From Escherichia coli (lineage in GTDB: Bacteria; Pseudomonadota; Gammaproteobacteria; Enterobacterales; Enterobacteriaceae), in the NCBI RefSeq assembly GCF_044324875.1, contig NZ_CP172185.1: a stretch of 64,000 bases of DNA, one strand, 5' to 3'. Shown here in pieces: positions 41,236-55,486 of the stretch (position 1 is its first letter; every line of letters begins with the position of its first letter). Below the pieces are notes generated by a model. That model made no database searches. It had not been told where the DNA came from and saw only the letters and a list, made by a program, of their open reading frames with translations. Position numbers and translations under genes: made by a program.

Positions 41236-41312
41236 GGCTACGTAGCTCAGTTGGTTAGAGCACATCACTCATAATGATGGGGTCACAGGTTCGAATCCCG
41301 TCGTAGCCACCA
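41236..41312 (+). tRNA. metT: tRNA-Met (elongator, anticodon CAU)
   Basis: 77-nt cloverleaf ggctacgtagctcag...ccacca with anticodon loop ctCATaa. Confidence 0.9.
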
Positions 41313-41321
41313 TCTTTTTTT

Positions 41322-41406
41322 GCGGGAGTGGCGAAATTGGTAGACGCACCAGATTTAGGTTCTGGCACCGCAAGGTGTGCGAGTTCAAGTCTCGCCTCCC
41401 GCACCA
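41322..41406 (+). tRNA. leuW: tRNA-Leu (anticodon UAG)
   Basis: 85-nt class II tRNA gcgggagtggcgaaattggtagac... with long variable arm; anticodon TAG. Confidence 0.9.
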
Positions 41407-41429
41407 TTCACCAGAAAGCGTTGTACGGA

Positions 41430-41504
41430 TGGGGTATCGCCAAGCGGTAAGGCACCGGTTTTTGATACCGGCATTCCCTGGTTCGAATCCAGGTACCCCA
41501 GCCA
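41430..41504 (+). tRNA. glnU: tRNA-Gln (anticodon UUG)
   Basis: 75-nt tggggtatcgccaagcggtaaggcaccggtttTTGata... Confidence 0.9.
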
Positions 41505-41519
41505 TCGAAGAAACAATCT

Positions 41520-41596
41520 GGCTACGTAGCTCAGTTGGTTAGAGCACATCACTCATAATGATGGGGTCACAGGTTCGAATCCCGTCGTAGCCACCA
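41520..41596 (+). tRNA. metU: tRNA-Met (elongator, anticodon CAU), second copy
   Basis: Identical in sequence to the first tRNA-Met. Confidence 0.9.
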
Positions 41597-41644
41597 AATT
41601 CTGAATGTGTCGAATGCGTTCGGCAAATTCACAAACCAATTTGT

Positions 41645-41719
41645 TGGGGTATCGCCAAGCGGTAAGGCACCGGATTCTGATTCCGGCATTCCGAGGTTCG
41701 AATCCTCGTACCCCAGCCA
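41645..41719 (+). tRNA. glnV: tRNA-Gln (anticodon CUG)
   Basis: 75-nt tggggtatcgccaagcggtaaggcaccggattCTGatt... Confidence 0.9.
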
Positions 41720-47267: not shown

Positions 47268-48806
47268 ATGGCTTTTGCCTCATTAATTGAACGCCAGCGC
47301 ATTCGCCTGCTGCTGGCGTTATTATTCGGTGCCTGCGGAACGCTGGCCTTCTCTCCTTGCGACGTCTGGCCTGCGGCGATTATTTCGCTGATGGGGCTTC
47401 AGGCGCTGACCTTTAACCGCCGTCCACTCCAGTCTGCCGCTATTGGCTTTTGCTGGGGATTTGGTCTCTTTGGCAGCGGTATTAACTGGGTCTATGTCAG
47501 CATCGCGACTTTTGGCGGAATGCCTGGCCCGGTTAACATCTTCCTGGTGGTGCTGCTGGCGGCGTATTTGTCGCTGTATACCGGACTGTTTGCTGGCGTG
47601 CTGTCGCGTCTGTGGCCGAAAACCACCTGGCTGCGCGTGGCGATTGCCGCCCCTGCTCTCTGGCAAGTGACCGAGTTTCTGCGCGGTTGGGTGCTGACCG
47701 GCTTCCCGTGGTTACAGTTCGGCTATAGCCAGATTGATGGCCCGTTAAAAGGGCTGGCACCGTTAATGGGCGTGGAAGCCATTAACTTCCTGCTGATGAT
47801 GGTTAGTGGCCTGCTGGCACTGGCGTTGGTCAAACGCAACTGGCGTCCGCTGGTGGTGGCCGTCGTGCTGTTCGCTCTTCCCTTCCCGCTGCGTTACATC
47901 CAGTGGTTCACCCCGCAACCGGAGAAAACCATTCAGGTTTCGATGGTTCAGGGCGATATTCCGCAATCACTGAAATGGGACGAAGGCCAGCTTCTTAATA
48001 CGCTGAAGATTTACTACAACGCAACGGCACCGCTGATGGGCAAATCATCGTTGATTATCTGGCCGGAGTCGGCGATAACCGATCTGGAAATTAATCAGCA
48101 ACCGTTCCTCAAAGCACTGGACGGTGAGTTGCGCGATAAAGGTAGCTCGCTGGTCACCGGGATTGTCGACGCGCGTCTCAATAAGCAGAACCGCTACGAT
48201 ACCTACAACACCATCATCACGCTGGGGAAAGGTGCGCCGTACAGCTACGAATCAGCCGATCGCTATAACAAAAACCATCTGGTGCCGTTTGGCGAGTTTG
48301 TCCCGCTGGAGTCGATTCTGCGTCCGTTAGCGCCGTTCTTTGATCTGCCGATGTCGTCGTTCAGCCGTGGGCCATATATCCAGCCACCGCTGTCGGTAAA
48401 CGGTATTGAGCTTACTGCGGCTATTTGCTACGAGATCATTCTCGGCGAGCAAGTGCGTGATAACTTCCGCCCGGATACCGACTACCTGCTGACCATCTCC
48501 AACGATGCGTGGTTTGGTAAATCTATTGGTCCATGGCAACACTTCCAGATGGCGCGAATGCGTGCGCTGGAGCTGGCGCGCCCGCTGTTGCGTAGCACCA
48601 ATAACGGTATTACGGCGGTGATTGGCCCGCAGGGGGAGATTCAGTCGATGATCCCGCAATTCACCCGCGAAGTGTTAACCACTAACGTGACACCGACCAC
48701 CGGACTCACACCATACGCACGTACCGGCAACTGGCCGCTGTGGGTACTGACGGCACTGTTTGGTTTTGCCGCTGTGTTGATGAGTCTGCGAGCACGTAAA
48801 CGTTAA
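47268..48806 (+). CDS. lnt: Apolipoprotein N-acyltransferase
   Basis: 512 aa; N-terminal membrane domain plus nitrilase-like CN-hydrolase domain. Confidence 0.95.
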
Positions 48807-48883
48807 TGTGCCTGATGTATCCGGCATAAACAAAACATACTTTCTCTTTGAGCTGTGGGGCGTGATTATCATGCCCCTTTTTC

Positions 48884-50761
48884 TTACGGTTCAGGGATAC
48901 AAGCCACATCGCCATATTGGGGATGCCGAATAATTGCCTGCGGATCAAGCGAGCGCGTCCTGTCCATTTGGATTAACCCGTTCTTCGCCATAACAAATAT
49001 CTTTCTACCATCCGCTGAAAAACGAAGATGATTAACGTAGCTGGCAGGATAAACGCCAATAATCTGCCCGGCATTAATATTGAGCAGAATGACATAACCT
49101 TGCAGGCCATATGACACCAACGCTAAATACTGACCGTCCGGGCTAATACCCTCAACGGAATAAACGCTCCTGCTACACCATTGCGTCATAATGCTGGCTT
49201 GCTGATCCCCAACTCTTATACGTGAAATCCCCTGGCTGTCGGCAAAAATTACATCCCCGTTTTCAGGTCGAAAACGCATCGCCGATATCGTTCCACGCGC
49301 ATCACTAGCCGGATAGCTTTCTTTTTGATGCGTGATGGTATTGATGCGTACAATGTCACCTCTGACCATACCGGGTATCAACAATGTTTTTTCATCCGGG
49401 GAAAGTGCCATAACCCAGGCGCCTGGTTTACCGCTCGTCCCCGTCCCGTCGTATTTCTCCAGCGGGATATCCGCCACATGCTGATAAGCCACCAGATCAA
49501 TGGCTGACACACTATTACTGGTGCGATTCATCACCCAGGCTTTTGTGCCATCGCGCGAGAGGATAAGGCTGTCAGGATGTGCGCCGGTGGTAATCGACTG
49601 AATAATCTCCCCCGTCGCCACGTTAATGACCGATAACGCATTCGCTTCAAATGAAGTTGCATAAAGCAACGTTTCATCCGGGCTTAACGCCAGCGATCTG
49701 ACGGCCTGATCTTTACAGCCACCACAATGTTTGAGTGACTTTTCTTTCGCTATGGGCGCTGTAAAGGTATGCAGGATTTTCTTTTGTCCGAGGTCGAAAA
49801 CAACAATGCTGTTGGTGTTTTCAATTGCGGCATACAACGTATTACCATCCCGACTGATCGCCATATCATGGATATCGGCAATCTCAGCGAGCAAATCACC
49901 ACTGGCCTGCTCACGACTTACCGGAGCGGATAATGTTTCCCTGAGGGCGTTGCGCTCCTCCACTAACTGCTGCTTTTTTTGTCGTCGCTCTTGTTCAATC
50001 TCCTGCGGATAAAACTCTTCACGCAGGCTGTGCCTGACCAGTAAAACTGATTCATCAATCTGCTGCTGCACAAGCCAGATAGCCCCGGTAAGAAGAAGAC
50101 TGCCCGCAACAATAATCCCGCCTTCCGTAACAAGCCGGTTTTGCCCAGATAAACGCGCACTCAGCCACCCCAACGCACCACCCGCAATCAGGCCGCCAAT
50201 ATGACAAGCATTATCTATTCCTGTTTGCCGGGCACCATACAACAGTGTCAGCGCCACCATACCCAACAGAGAAAATACTCGCCGCTGGTTTTTATGGTAT
50301 GTGCCCGCACCTGAAGCAAGCTGTGTTGCTATCGCAGCGCCAGCAATTCCCATAATTGCCCCGGATGCCCCAACGCTGATGACTATCTGCTCACTTTCGC
50401 GTAACGCATAACAGGCGCTGATTAGCCCACCAAAGACGCCAGAGAATAGCCAGACAATCAGGAGTCGCCATTTCCCCAGTATCCGTTCCGCCACTGCCCC
50501 CACCACCAGGAGTGCAAACATATTCATCAGCAAATGGGGAAAACTACTGTGCAGAAAGACACTGCTCAATAAGCGCCAGGGTTCACCCGACAACGTGAGA
50601 GAAGCAACGTTAGCACCAAGATGGATGAGTGCGGATTGATCGACGTCTTCATAACTCATCCATTGTGCGAGATAACAAAATATCCCAACACAGAGCGCAA
50701 AAAGGATAAGAGTTATTGCGGGTAATTGAACATTTAACGGCTTAACCGAAGATGCAGACAT
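48884..50761 (-). CDS. Rhomboid-family intramembrane serine protease fused to a C-terminal YVTN/WD40-like beta-propeller (625 aa)
   Basis: N-terminal polytopic region with rhomboid motifs GASGAIMG (Ser) and HIGGLIAG (His); linker rich in E/R/Q; C-terminal repeats SRDGNTLY, SPDETLLYA, SRDGTKAWV, SPDEKTLLI, SPDGQYLAL, SADGRKIFV. Confidence 0.75.
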   Translation of the reverse strand: MSASSVKPLNVQLPAITLILFALCVGIFCYLAQWMSYEDVDQSALIHLGANVASLTLSGEPWRLLSSVFLHSSFPHLLMNMFALLVVGAVAERILGKWRLLIVWLFSGVFGGLISACYALRESEQIVISVGASGAIMGIAGAAIATQLASGAGTYHKNQRRVFSLLGMVALTLLYGARQTGIDNACHIGGLIAGGALGWLSARLSGQNRLVTEGGIIVAGSLLLTGAIWLVQQQIDESVLLVRHSLREEFYPQEIEQERRQKKQQLVEERNALRETLSAPVSREQASGDLLAEIADIHDMAISRDGNTLYAAIENTNSIVVFDLGQKKILHTFTAPIAKEKSLKHCGGCKDQAVRSLALSPDETLLYATSFEANALSVINVATGEIIQSITTGAHPDSLILSRDGTKAWVMNRTSNSVSAIDLVAYQHVADIPLEKYDGTGTSGKPGAWVMALSPDEKTLLIPGMVRGDIVRINTITHQKESYPASDARGTISAMRFRPENGDVIFADSQGISRIRVGDQQASIMTQWCSRSVYSVEGISPDGQYLALVSYGLQGYVILLNINAGQIIGVYPASYVNHLRFSADGRKIFVMAKNGLIQMDRTRSLDPQAIIRHPQYGDVACIPEP

Positions 50762-51215
50762 GAGGTAATTCTTCCTTGAAAAGACAGGTAAAAAGCATTT
50801 TTCTCGTGTGCAGTTACCATCCCGGCAAACGTCCCATACCGAAAAGTTAACCCTGTCCGAAATATGACTTTTTCAGCCTGAAATTACAATCGTAATTAAT
50901 TCACCCCTAACTATTTTTTGGCATGTAAGTTGCTTTAATTACTGTGTAAGCAATGAAATCAGCCGCAACGAAACCGGGTTGCACCACCACAAATCAACGG
51001 TAGCGCCAAAAAGGTGCGGTTTAAGAATTTTGCTTCGGAATGGTGCGGCGCATCTCGCAAAAACAAACAATAAAACAGCAATATCTTTACATTTAGCCAA
51101 ACTAAATGTTACCTAACAAGCACAACACTGCACAATAAAGTTGCAGATGATAACAACACAAACACTCACAACGGGTATCCATGCGTTCTTAACGCAGAAG
51201 ATAAAGGAGTTGGAT

Positions 51216-52124
51216 ATGCAATTACGTAAACCTGCCACAGCAATCCTGGCCCTGGCGCTTTCCGCAGGACTGGCACAGGCAGATGACGCCGCCCCGGCAG
51301 CGGGCAGTACGCTGGACAAAATCGCCAAAAACGGTGTGATTGTCGTCGGTCACCGTGAATCTTCAGTACCTTTCTCTTATTACGACAATCAGCAAAAAGT
51401 GGTGGGTTACTCGCAGGATTACTCCAACGCCATTGTTGAAGCAGTGAAAAAGAAACTCAACAAACCGGACTTGCAGGTGAAACTGATTCCGATCACCTCA
51501 CAAAACCGTATTCCTCTGCTGCAAAACGGCACTTTCGATTTTGAATGTGGTTCTACCACCAATAACGTCGAACGCCAGAAACAGGCGGCTTTCTCTGACA
51601 CTATTTTCGTGGTCGGTACGCGCCTGCTGACCAAAAAGGGCGGCGATATCAAAGATTTTGCCGACCTGAAAGGCAAAGCCGTAGTCGTCACTTCCGGCAC
51701 TACCTCTGAAGTTTTGCTCAACAAATTGAATGAAGAGCAAAAAATGAATATGCGCATCATCAGCGCCAAAGATCACGGTGACTCTTTCCGCACCCTGGAA
51801 AGCGGTCGTGCTGTTGCCTTTATGATGGATGACGCTCTGCTGGCAGGTGAACGTGCGAAAGCGAAGAAACCGGACAACTGGGAAATCGTCGGCAAGCCGC
51901 AGTCTCAGGAAGCCTACGGTTGTATGTTGCGTAAAGATGATCCGCAGTTCAAAAAGCTGATGGATGACACCATCGCGCAGGTGCAGACCTCCGGTGAAGC
52001 GGAAAAATGGTTTGATAAGTGGTTCAAAAATCCCATTCCGCCGAAAAACCTGAACATGAATTTCGAGCTGTCAGACGAAATGAAAGCACTGTTCAAAGAA
52101 CCGAATGATAAGGCACTGAACTAA
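51216..52124 (+). CDS. gltI: Glutamate/aspartate ABC transporter periplasmic binding protein
   Basis: ORF 51141..52124; start MQLRKPATAILALALSAGLAQA (signal peptide) gives 302 aa. Confidence 0.9.
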   Translation: MQLRKPATAILALALSAGLAQADDAAPAAGSTLDKIAKNGVIVVGHRESSVPFSYYDNQQKVVGYSQDYSNAIVEAVKKKLNKPDLQVKLIPITSQNRIPLLQNGTFDFECGSTTNNVERQKQAAFSDTIFVVGTRLLTKKGGDIKDFADLKGKAVVVTSGTTSEVLLNKLNEEQKMNMRIISAKDHGDSFRTLESGRAVAFMMDDALLAGERAKAKKPDNWEIVGKPQSQEAYGCMLRKDDPQFKKLMDDTIAQVQTSGEAEKWFDKWFKNPIPPKNLNMNFELSDEMKALFKEPNDKALN

Positions 52125-52281
52125 TTACAAGAACCAGGGGCGGAAATTCCAGCCCTCTCGATTGTTACGTAGCACGGACAGACTATACGCCTGATGGTCG
52201 TTCCCCATCGGGCCTGAAAACCGCAATACGCTGGGTAACAATCTTCGAGGGTAGCAGTTAACGCTGCTACCCTCTTTTTTC
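52125..52281 (+). ncRNA. sroC: Candidate sRNA SroC, processed from the gltI-gltJ intergenic region
   Basis: Intergenic stretch ending in hairpin gagggtagcagttaacgctgctaccctc plus ttttttc (52248-52281); position matches where SroC is described. Confidence 0.45.
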
Positions 52282-52293
52282 TGGAGTAGATTT

Positions 52294-53034
52294 ATGTCTA
52301 TAGACTGGAACTGGGGTATTTTTTTACAACAAGCCCCGTTCGGCAACACCACCTATCTTGGTTGGATCTGGAGTGGTTTTCAGGTGACGATCGCTTTGTC
52401 GATCTGCGCCTGGATTATCGCTTTCCTCGTCGGTTCATTTTTCGGCATTTTACGTACCGTTCCAAACCGTTTTCTCTCCGGTCTGGGTACGTTGTATGTC
52501 GAACTGTTCCGCAACGTGCCGTTGATTGTGCAATTCTTTACCTGGTATCTGGTGATCCCGGAGCTGCTGCCGGAGAAAATCGGCATGTGGTTTAAGGCCG
52601 AGCTGGATCCCAATATTCAGTTTTTCCTTTCATCCATGCTCTGCCTGGGGCTGTTTACCGCCGCCCGTGTTTGCGAACAGGTACGCGCCGCGATCCAGTC
52701 GCTGCCGCGAGGGCAAAAAAATGCCGCGCTGGCGATGGGCCTGACGCTACCGCAGGCTTATCGATACGTACTGTTGCCTAACGCTTATCGCGTTATCGTC
52801 CCGCCGATGACCTCCGAGATGATGAACCTGGTGAAAAACTCTGCCATCGCCTCGACTATTGGTCTGGTGGATATGGCGGCGCAGGCGGGTAAATTGCTTG
52901 ATTACTCAGCCCACGCCTGGGAGTCGTTTACCGCCATCACGCTGGCGTATGTATTGATTAACGCTTTTATCATGCTGGTGATGACGCTGGTTGAACGTAA
53001 AGTTCGCCTGCCTGGCAACATGGGGGGCAAATAA
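52294..53034 (+). CDS. gltJ: Glutamate/aspartate ABC transporter permease
   Basis: 246 aa; membrane protein. Confidence 0.9.
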
Positions 53035-53708
53035 TGTACGAGTTTGACTGGAGTTCCATTGTCCCTTCCCTGCCATATCTGCTCGACGGGCTGGTGATCA
53101 CGCTGAAAATCACCGTCACAGCAGTCGTGATTGGTATTTTGTGGGGCACCATGCTGGCGGTGATGCGCTTGTCCAGCTTTGCGCCCGTAGCGTGGTTTGC
53201 CAAAGCCTACGTTAACGTATTCCGCTCGATTCCTTTAGTTATGGTTTTGCTGTGGTTTTACCTGATCGTGCCGGGTTTTCTGCAAAACGTACTGGGATTA
53301 TCACCAAAAAATGACATCCGTTTAATTTCGGCGATGGTGGCGTTTTCGATGTTTGAAGCAGCCTACTATTCAGAGATTATCCGTGCCGGTATTCAAAGTA
53401 TTTCCCGTGGTCAGTCGAGCGCCGCGCTGGCGTTGGGGATGACTCACTGGCAGTCGATGAAACTGATTATTCTGCCGCAGGCTTTCCGCGCAATGGTGCC
53501 GCTGCTGCTCACTCAGGGCATCGTACTGTTCCAGGATACCTCGCTGGTGTATGTGTTATCTCTGGCCGATTTCTTCCGTACCGCTTCAACCATTGGTGAA
53601 CGTGATGGTACGCAGGTCGAGATGATCCTGTTTGCCGGATTTGTTTATTTCGTTATTAGCCTTAGCGCGTCGTTGTTGGTCAGCTACTTGAAAAGAAGGA
53701 CAGCATAA
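53034..53708 (+). CDS. gltK: Glutamate/aspartate ABC transporter permease
   Basis: 224 aa; membrane protein. Confidence 0.9.
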
Positions 53709-54433
53709 TGATTACCCTGAAAAATGTTTCAAAATGGTATGGTCACTTTCAGGTGCTGACCGACTGCTCAACCGAAGTGAAAAAAGGCGAAGTGGTGGTG
53801 GTTTGCGGCCCGTCTGGTTCCGGCAAATCAACGCTGATTAAAACCGTCAACGGCCTCGAACCGGTGCAGCAAGGTGAAATTACCGTCGATGGCATCGTGG
53901 TTAACGATAAGAAAACCGATCTGGCAAAGCTGCGTTCCCGCGTCGGGATGGTGTTCCAGCATTTCGAGTTGTTCCCCCATTTGTCGATTATTGAAAACCT
54001 GACCCTGGCGCAGGTGAAAGTGCTTAAACGCGATAAAGCACCCGCTCGTGAAAAAGCATTGAAATTGCTGGAGCGCGTCGGGCTTTCCGCTCATGCCAAT
54101 AAGTTTCCGGCGCAGCTTTCCGGCGGTCAGCAGCAGCGTGTGGCGATCGCTCGCGCATTGTGCATGGATCCTATTGCCATGCTGTTCGACGAACCGACAT
54201 CGGCGCTGGATCCGGAGATGATCAACGAAGTGCTGGACGTAATGGTCGAACTGGCGAACGAAGGAATGACCATGATGGTGGTGACCCACGAAATGGGCTT
54301 TGCCCGTAAAGTGGCGAATCGGGTGATCTTTATGGACGAGGGTAAAATTGTCGAAGACTCGCCGAAAGACGCTTTCTTCGATGATCCGAAATCGGACCGC
54401 GCAAAAGACTTCCTCGCGAAAATCCTGCATTAA
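53708..54433 (+). CDS. gltL: Glutamate/aspartate ABC transporter ATP-binding protein
   Basis: 241 aa; Walker [10 protein letters not shown] and ABC signature LSGGQQQR. Confidence 0.95.
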
Positions 54434-54550
54434 TCACTCTGGCGCGCATACCCAAGTGCGCGCCATCTCACGCTTTATCGTTTCGCCCCTCGTATCTGTT
54501 ACATCCTGGCGTTACCCTTGTCGCAAAGAAGCACACAACAAGGAGCAACA

Positions 54551-55486
54551 ATGGCACTGCCAATTCTGTTAGATTGCGACCCAGGTCATGATGACGCTAT
54601 CGCAATAGTTCTCGCCCTCGCCTCACCAGAGCTTGATGTCAAAGCAATTACGTCTTCCGCCGGAAACCAGACACCAGAAAAAACCTTACGCAATGTTCTG
54701 CGTATGCTGACCTTGCTTAATCGCACCGATATTCCGGTGGCAGGCGGCGCGGTAAAACCGTTAATGCGTGAGTTGATTATCGCGGACAATGTGCACGGCG
54801 AAAGCGGTCTCGACGGCCCGGCATTACCGGAACCGACGTTCGCACCGCAAAACTGTACGGCGGTGGAGCTGATGGCGAAAACGCTGCGTGAAAGTGCGAA
54901 ACCTGTCACGATTGTTTCTACCGGGCCGCAAACTAACGTTGCCTTGCTGCTCAATAGCCATCCGGAACTGCATAGCAAAATTGCTCGTATCGTGATTATG
55001 GGCGGCGCAATGGGGCTTGGTAACTGGACGCCTGCGGCTGAATTTAATATTTACGTTGACCCGGAAGCGGCAGAAATTGTTTTCCAGTCAGGGATCCCGG
55101 TGGTGATGGCCGGTCTGGATGTTACTCATAAAGCGCAAATCCACGTTGAAGACACCGAGCGTTTCCGCGCGATTGGCAACCCTGTTTCAACCATTGTTGC
55201 CGAACTGCTGGATTTCTTCCTCGAATATCATAAAGACGAAAAATGGGGCTTTGTCGGCGCACCGCTGCATGACCCATGCACCATCGCCTGGCTGTTAAAA
55301 CCGGAGTTGTTTACCACTGTTGAGCGCTGGGTTGGCGTGGAAACACAAGGGAAATATACCCAGGGTATGACGGTTGTTGATTATTATTATCTGACCGGCA
55401 ATAAACCGAATGCCACTGTAATGGTCGATGTTGATCGTCAGGGCGTTGTTGATTTACTGGCTGATTGTCTGAAATTTTACGCTTAA
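54551..55486 (+). CDS. rihA: Pyrimidine-specific ribonucleoside hydrolase
   Basis: ORF 54518..55486; start [16 protein letters not shown] (IU-nucleoside hydrolase DxDxxxDD motif) gives 311 aa. Confidence 0.9.

Follow-up and report, generated by a model that had tools for sequence, protein, structure and literature searches.

The spacer separating gltI from gltJ in this Escherichia coli genome contains the small RNA SroC, which occupies 163 nt of the plus strand at positions 52120-52282 of the window (the whole stretch of 64,000 nt that was analysed). The element is almost certainly the sroC of E. coli, together with the release by RNase E, the sponging of GcvB and the feed-forward loop that have been proposed for it. 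When the entire 64-kb window was scanned against Rfam 15 at gathering thresholds, the sroC family (RF00369) matched exactly these coordinates with 174.8 bits (E-value 7.4e-37), covering positions 1-163 of the 163 in the model without truncation, and it was the sole non-tRNA Rfam match in the window. The gathering score of this family is 45 bits, so that a lack of similarity to SroC was clearly absent. The same stretch showed 100% base identity with sroC of K-12 MG1655 (b4763), which is annotated as "small regulatory RNA SroC" at NC_000913 686681-686843, between the two genes and overlapping gltI by 5 nt. A comparison of 221 nt with K-12 revealed a single difference, a synonymous GAT/GAC change in gltI, 5' of SroC. 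Hence, the initial annotation, which had proposed the spacer as a SroC candidate from its position and structure alone, was correct. Sequence identity, the family match, a covarying fold, the pairing sites, the terminator, the leader site and synteny were obtained here; the RNase E processing, the binding of and dependence on Hfq, the decay of GcvB and the growth phenotype on peptides were taken from the literature. Nothing among the evidence gathered contradicted the SroC explanation.

The context of the element was that of the gltIJKL operon, as had been claimed, and the same four gene names were found in the RefSeq annotation. The parent gene of SroC, gltI (51216-52124, plus strand), encodes the periplasmic glutamate/aspartate binding protein and matched NCBIfam NF008063 with 668.5 bits (cut-off 375). 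It is followed on the same strand by the permease and ATPase genes gltJKL (52294-54433), consisting of gltJ (52294-53034; open reading frame and RefSeq annotation), gltK (53034-53708; NF011687, 479 bits, and RefSeq annotation) and gltL, the ABC ATPase (53708-54433; open reading frame and RefSeq annotation). The spacer placed at 52125-52293 measured 169 nt between the gltI stop codon (52122-52124) and the gltJ ATG at 52294. SroC lies in it in the sense orientation, beginning 5 nt inside the gltI coding sequence, where the second base of the final Asn codon is its first nucleotide, and ending 11 nt short of the gltJ ATG, a position equal to that in K-12. The spacer and its flanks were 100% identical to complete E. 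coli genomes, strain 042 among them, and a 211-nt query around the spacer was matched in 5421 of the 5426 complete E. coli genomes, always with at least 95% identity. Records annotated by PGAP show gltI and gltJ only at this locus, and the missing sroC is an annotation gap and no biological difference.

SroC was reportedly described by Vogel and co-workers in 2003 and has reportedly formed part of the E. coli annotation since that year. That it lies in the gltI-gltJ spacer was known before, and the reference genome carries its annotation, so that the finding is an ordinary one; what is gained are the exact coordinates in this strain of SroC, its two GcvB sites, the terminator and the gltI leader site. 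The mechanism was dissected by Miyakoshi, Chao and Vogel (EMBO J, 2015; PMC4474525). In sequence, position, strand, fold, terminator and GcvB sites, the RNA of this strain equals that of K-12 (RF00369, b4763).

The 163-nt RNA was predicted to be highly structured. Its minimum free energy (MFE) was -66.3 kcal/mol, compared with -40.5 +/- 4.0 kcal/mol for dinucleotide shuffles (z = -6.5; none of 200 as good). An A/U-rich 5' segment (52120-52136, plus strand) was unpaired in both the MFE and the centroid folds; it bears the 5' end attributed to RNase E in published work (PMC4474525). In the MFE fold it was followed by the stem-loop SL1 (GGGGCGG...CCAGCCCU; 52137-52156, plus strand) and by SL2 (52160-52243, plus strand), a long interrupted stem-loop that presents both GcvB sites.

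The conservation of this fold was analyzed by searching a single genome of each GTDB species for a pattern that extends from the first GcvB site (BS1) to the second (BS2). This search detected 59 loci, distributed among Citrobacter, Enterobacter, Escherichia, Salmonella, Klebsiella, Raoultella, Kluyvera, Kosakonia, Phytobacter, Yokenella, Trabulsiella, Lelliottia, Pluralibacter and Huaxiibacter; the invariance of BS1 and BS2 in the resulting alignment is due to both having formed part of the search pattern. The 56 loci with enough flanking DNA were used in the alignment, and all 56 were flanked by the C-terminus of GltI (...FKxPNDKALN*) and/or the N-terminus of GltJ (MSIDWNWG...), the simple test for these motifs having missed one of the two flanks at some loci. 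The MFE structure of the window was projected onto the alignment, and versions with the 3' partners slid by 1-3 columns were used as controls. Standard pairs occupied 90.1% of the cells in the 56 sequences, versus 35-51% in the slid controls, and the covariation score was 0.209 versus 0.05-0.07, although the tested structure had the advantage over its slid versions of being derived from one of the aligned sequences. Changes on both sides were found in 17 of the 48 pairs. Two of these pairs belonged to helix 1 (SL1), which was 84% paired, and 13 to helices 2-5 (SL2); the apical SL2 stem was 97.8% paired with five of its nine pairs compensatory, and in the basal SL2 stem eight of 13 pairs were compensatory. 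The compensatory changes among homologues support the SroC fold.

The same alignment bears on the notion that the spacer encodes a small antisense protein. A 75-aa open reading frame does run through it on the minus strand (52125-52352), as listed mechanically by the program. Nevertheless, this frame was not conserved: most net length differences in 55 homologues were not multiples of three (for instance, -7 in 10, -10 in seven and -11 in six), the frame was interrupted by stops in most genera, with the longest stop-free antisense stretch dropping to 30-50 codons, and the substitutions tracked base-pairing and not codons. The frame was discarded as a candidate, the probability of such a protein being practically nil.

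Some loci departed from the usual arrangement. In Enterobacteriaceae bacterium RIT691 (L012:6749-6948) and Yokenella regensburgei (L047:4235-4434), SL1, SL2 and both GcvB sites were kept, and unrelated sequence was found in place of the terminator and the start of gltJ. These two loci may represent an insertion or a differently terminated SroC, and they are reminiscent of the truncated SroC homologue described in Yersinia pestis (PMC4474525). Additionally, in three loci of Citrobacter (L017, L024 and L026) and two of Phytobacter (L041 and L048), the first 30 nt or so of the aligned segments, 5' of SL1, bore no relation to the ...AAAGCNCTTAACTAA with which gltI usually ends. These five loci thus differ at the gltI 3' end and, likewise, in the region of the RNase E processing site.

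The identity of the element was also reflected in its GcvB contact sites. In Salmonella SroC, two sites of "7 or 8 nucleotides" that are "only 14 nucleotides apart" were mapped by structure probing and compensatory mutation, the tested pairs being C63 (BS1) with GcvB G160 and C87 (BS2) with GcvB G14 (mutants C63G/G160C and C87G/G14C; PMC4474525). Both sites were found in the window on the plus strand. BS1, GGACAGAC (52176-52183, SroC 57-64), was an 8-nt perfect complement of GcvB 156-163 in the R3/SL4 region, and BS2, UCGUUCC (52198-52204, SroC 79-85), was a 7-nt perfect complement of GcvB 13-19 in SL1 of that RNA. The gap between them was 14 nt, with C60 facing GcvB G160 and C84 facing GcvB G14. 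The published residues G61, G65 and G84 corresponded to G58, G62 and G81 in the K-12 numbering, a constant offset of 3 nt. The SroC of Salmonella enterica thus has the same architecture, with identical BS1 and BS2 and the same residues pairing with GcvB G160 and G14, and differs in its published numbering, which is 3 nt higher than in E. coli. Since the offset was constant and no indel was present 5' of BS1 between the alignment rows, the Salmonella 5' end was probably mapped 3 nt further upstream.

In the predicted fold, BS1 was located in an internal bulge of SL2, with a mean unpaired probability of 0.59, and BS2 in the SL2 apical loop, with an unpaired probability of 1.00, in agreement with the published probing data (PMC4474525). 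The gcvB sequence used for these comparisons was that of K-12, where gcvB lies about 2.26 Mb from sroC (K-12 reference record). It was not found in the 64-kb window, and we infer its presence in this genome. Between SroC and GcvB there were four complementary sites of at least 7 nt, versus 1.4 expected, and 5% of mononucleotide shuffles reached four; short complementarity taken alone was weakly significant. Because these shuffle statistics are weak, the pairing claim rests on the exact match to the experimentally mapped sites. The two extra complementarities linked SroC 101-108 (ACCGCAAU; 52220-52227) to the stem of the GcvB terminator (189-196) and SroC 146-152 (UGCUACC; 52265-52271) to GcvB 114-120, both of them perfectly. 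They are buried in stable stems of the two RNAs, with one of the sites in the terminator region of each, and as functional sites they were rejected as probably due to chance.

The 3' end of SroC is formed by a Rho-independent terminator (52247-52280, plus strand), identified by the fold and a scan for T-tracts, with a hairpin at 52247-52274 followed by TTTTTT at 52275-52280. The hairpin had 12 bp, seven of them G-C, and a 4-nt loop, and the stem-loop alone reached -21.3 kcal/mol. In the scan, every run of five or more T on either strand of the 64-kb window, 238 sites in total, was evaluated by folding the 34 nt upstream. The SroC terminator ranked first of the 238 by the stability of the upstream hairpin (-21.6 kcal/mol versus -19.8 kcal/mol for the next), which indicated that the hairpin is real and no chance feature. 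The U-tail of SroC is presumably its Hfq-binding module, as would be expected from small RNAs in general. The Shine-Dalgarno sequence of gltJ, GGAG (52283-52286), follows directly 3' of the T-tract. A block comprising GGGTAGC...GCTACCC and the T-run was conserved in 54 of the 56 aligned sequences.

The length of the hairpin varied between genera, the loci concerned being L008, L020, L030, L032, L040, L043, L050 and those of Escherichia. The Escherichia terminator had 12 bp (-22.5 kcal/mol) and that of Kluyvera about -20 to -23 kcal/mol, whereas a 9-bp hairpin of -13.2 kcal/mol was present in Salmonella, Citrobacter, Enterobacter, Klebsiella, Raoultella and Kosakonia. The longer hairpin of Escherichia and Kluyvera is due to extra bases in its middle, and the difference could shift the ratio between termination and read-through from one genus to another. 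In the Rfam sroC model, the terminator hairpin is not encoded as base pairs and the 3' end is modelled on the short-hairpin type; as a consequence, the E. coli terminator (52253-52282) was nearly matchless at model positions of about 137-155, even though the overall score was high.

The initial annotation had described a strong intrinsic terminator. This held for the hairpin, but termination at it is leaky according to the literature, where a "leaky Rho-independent terminator" yields a monocistronic gltI mRNA beside the gltIJKL mRNA (PMC4474525). From the published data, SroC and the monocistronic gltI mRNA share this terminator as their 3' end, and gltJKL is partly attenuated by it. A search by strict consensus match, which weak promoters can escape, found no sigma-70-like site on the plus strand of 50700-54600, and a promoter within the operon, whether of SroC or of gltJ, was consequently discarded within these limits. 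This result is consistent with gltJKL relying on read-through and with SroC lacking a promoter of its own, and leaky termination fits the absence of a promoter-like site between the terminator and gltJKL.

A high ratio of the binding protein to the permease and ATPase is typical of ABC transporters. The element could accordingly be conceived as an attenuator and mRNA-stabilising hairpin within the operon that sets a high GltI:GltJKL ratio and has no trans-acting role. The hairpin and T-tract do sit between the binding-protein and permease genes with no promoter-like site downstream, and the terminator also produces monocistronic gltI mRNA (PMC4474525). Nevertheless, a bare terminator takes up about 35 nt, yet the 125 nt upstream of it are conserved, folded and covarying, and this upstream region carries both exact GcvB contact sites. 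Furthermore, sroC deletions and point mutations stabilise GcvB without involvement of the GltI protein, the half-life of GcvB rising from 1.7 min to more than 15 min upon sroC deletion, and the rescue of GcvB decay by compensatory mutations has been published for Salmonella (PMC4474525). An element acting purely in cis is thus highly improbable. The attenuator role itself is real, and it is part of the accepted SroC model and no alternative to it.

Another explanation would be that SroC is an independent gene, transcribed from a separate promoter within the 3' portion of gltI, and no processing product. DapZ and MicL are small RNAs of 3' UTRs that are made in this way (PMC4474525). For SroC, the scan of 50700-54600 described above speaks against it, as do the published 5' monophosphate, the 5' end without a transcription start site, the dependence on RNase E and Hfq, and the loss of SroC once RNase E is inactivated (PMC4474525). 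A separate promoter was hence judged extremely improbable, and SroC was regarded as a processed fragment of the gltI mRNA. With respect to the site of processing, the preference of RNase E is for R-N↓W-U-U. The annotated 5' end of SroC, GA↓ACU at 52119/52120, was a partial fit to this preference, and in E. coli the site that would correspond to the Salmonella end, 3 nt further upstream, is AC↓UGA.

To close the circuit, the parent mRNA should itself be a target of GcvB, and a CA-rich target site of GcvB has been described in the gltI 5' UTR (PMC4474525). A CA-rich site was observed in the gltI leader of the window at 51140-51173 (plus strand), with the C+A fraction reaching 0.9 at 51150-51169. 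The duplex of this segment with GcvB 63-92, the GU-rich R1 region, was calculated at -33.9 kcal/mol, versus -20.4 +/- 2.8 kcal/mol for 500 shuffled leaders, none of which was as good. The GcvB site in the gltI leader makes the parent mRNA of SroC a GcvB target itself, which closes the published feed-forward loop.

Taken in sequence, the mechanism would operate as follows. Transcription from a single gltI promoter would stop partially at 52247-52280, giving the monocistronic gltI mRNA, and read-through would give the gltIJKL mRNA. The 5'-end-dependent decay of the gltI mRNA by RNase E would come to a halt on reaching the foot of the structured 3' part, where Hfq would guide the correct RNase E cut, leaving a stable, Hfq-bound SroC of about 160 nt (52120-52282) with a 5' monophosphate. 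This RNA would then pair with two distant parts of GcvB through BS1, in the internal bulge, and BS2, in the SL2 apical loop, and the pairing would lead to cleavage of GcvB by RNase E. With less GcvB, many mRNAs of amino-acid and peptide transporters (opp, dpp and others) would be relieved, and so would gltI, through the CA-rich site of its leader, which constitutes the feed-forward loop.

The reported effects agree with these steps. SroC derepresses the GcvB targets oppA, dppA and gltI, sroC point mutants grow more slowly on tryptone, and the E. coli homologues of SroC and GcvB are functional (PMC4474525). The SroC found here is identical to that E. coli RNA of reported function. Approximately 70% of the GcvB chimeras detected by RIL-seq in stationary-phase E. 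coli involved SroC (cited in PMC9299463). In a review, MgrR is additionally named as another small RNA sponged by SroC, and fliE and flhBAE appear among its mRNA targets (PMC9438474).

SroC nucleotides that are conserved but do not contact GcvB might control termination between gltI and gltJ, as suggested previously (PMC4474525). A candidate for such a role was found in CCCUC, in the 3' arm of SL1 (52153-52157, SroC 34-38), a perfect complement of GAGGG (52247-52251, SroC 128-132), the first five bases of the terminator stem. Both motifs were near-invariant across genera, and the invariance of these residues precluded a covariation test of the pairing. In nascent transcripts of 146-150 nt, the CCCUC-GAGGG pairing was the unconstrained MFE, and it was predicted to lengthen SL2 at the cost of the basal part of the terminator. 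The helix might serve as an antiterminator if SL1 were unwound, for instance by Hfq, by GcvB or by a ribosome terminating at the end of gltI, although such a role is very unlikely. At full length, the terminator conformer of the window was favoured over the alternative by 9.5 kcal/mol, and it was the more stable of the two in all 45 species evaluated (median difference 6.5 kcal/mol, minimum 0.6 kcal/mol); as the main reading, antitermination was discarded for this reason. If true, the helix would set the ratio of SroC plus gltI mRNA to gltIJKL mRNA, and termination at the SroC hairpin, if regulated, would govern the amount of SroC released.

Besides SroC, CpxQ is a further RNase E-processed, 3'-end-derived small RNA of enterobacteria, and the 3'ETS-leuZ fragment is a sponge of RyhB and RybB. 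SdhX, NarS and MalH resemble SroC in being released by RNase E from a parent mRNA, in using the terminator of this parent and in depending on Hfq; SroC differs from them in originating from a terminator internal to an operon and in having as its main target another small RNA and not an mRNA (PMC9438474). The chbBC spacer, like SroC, is a by-product of a transcript that titrates or destabilises an Hfq-dependent small RNA, ChiX in this case, but its mechanism is different, since pairing alters the terminator of ChiX and leaves this RNA accessible to PNPase (PMC4474525). Unlike these two sponges, SroC uses two separated short contacts and the decay of its partner by RNase E.

The surroundings of the gltI-sroC unit in this strain diverged from those of K-12 in two respects, the lack of IS5D upstream of gltI and the presence of a rhomboid-family gene between lnt and gltI. 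The CTAA at 51113-51116 was uninterrupted in the window, whereas K-12 carries IS5D there, with CTAA duplicated on both sides. The site precedes the gltI ATG by 100 nt and lies immediately 5' of the CA-rich GcvB stretch. In K-12, the insertion may cut the gltI-sroC unit off from part of its native upstream region, and SroC expression could therefore differ from that of strains without it. The other difference corresponds to an open reading frame of 625 aa (48884-50761, minus strand) with a long C-terminal part, for which the RefSeq annotation is "rhomboid family intramembrane serine protease". It separates lnt from gltI, is absent from K-12 and is a variable gene adjoining the gltI promoter region; positions 48700-51215 were covered over at least 80% in only 3231 of the 5426 complete E. 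coli genomes. Elsewhere in the window, a tRNA cluster at 41236-41719 (plus strand) contained five genes, Met(cat), Leu(tag), Gln(ttg), Met(cat) and Gln(ctg). The same locus in K-12 has seven, metT-leuW-glnU-glnW-metU-glnV-glnX, and each tandem pair of identical Gln tRNA genes of K-12 was present as a single copy in this strain.
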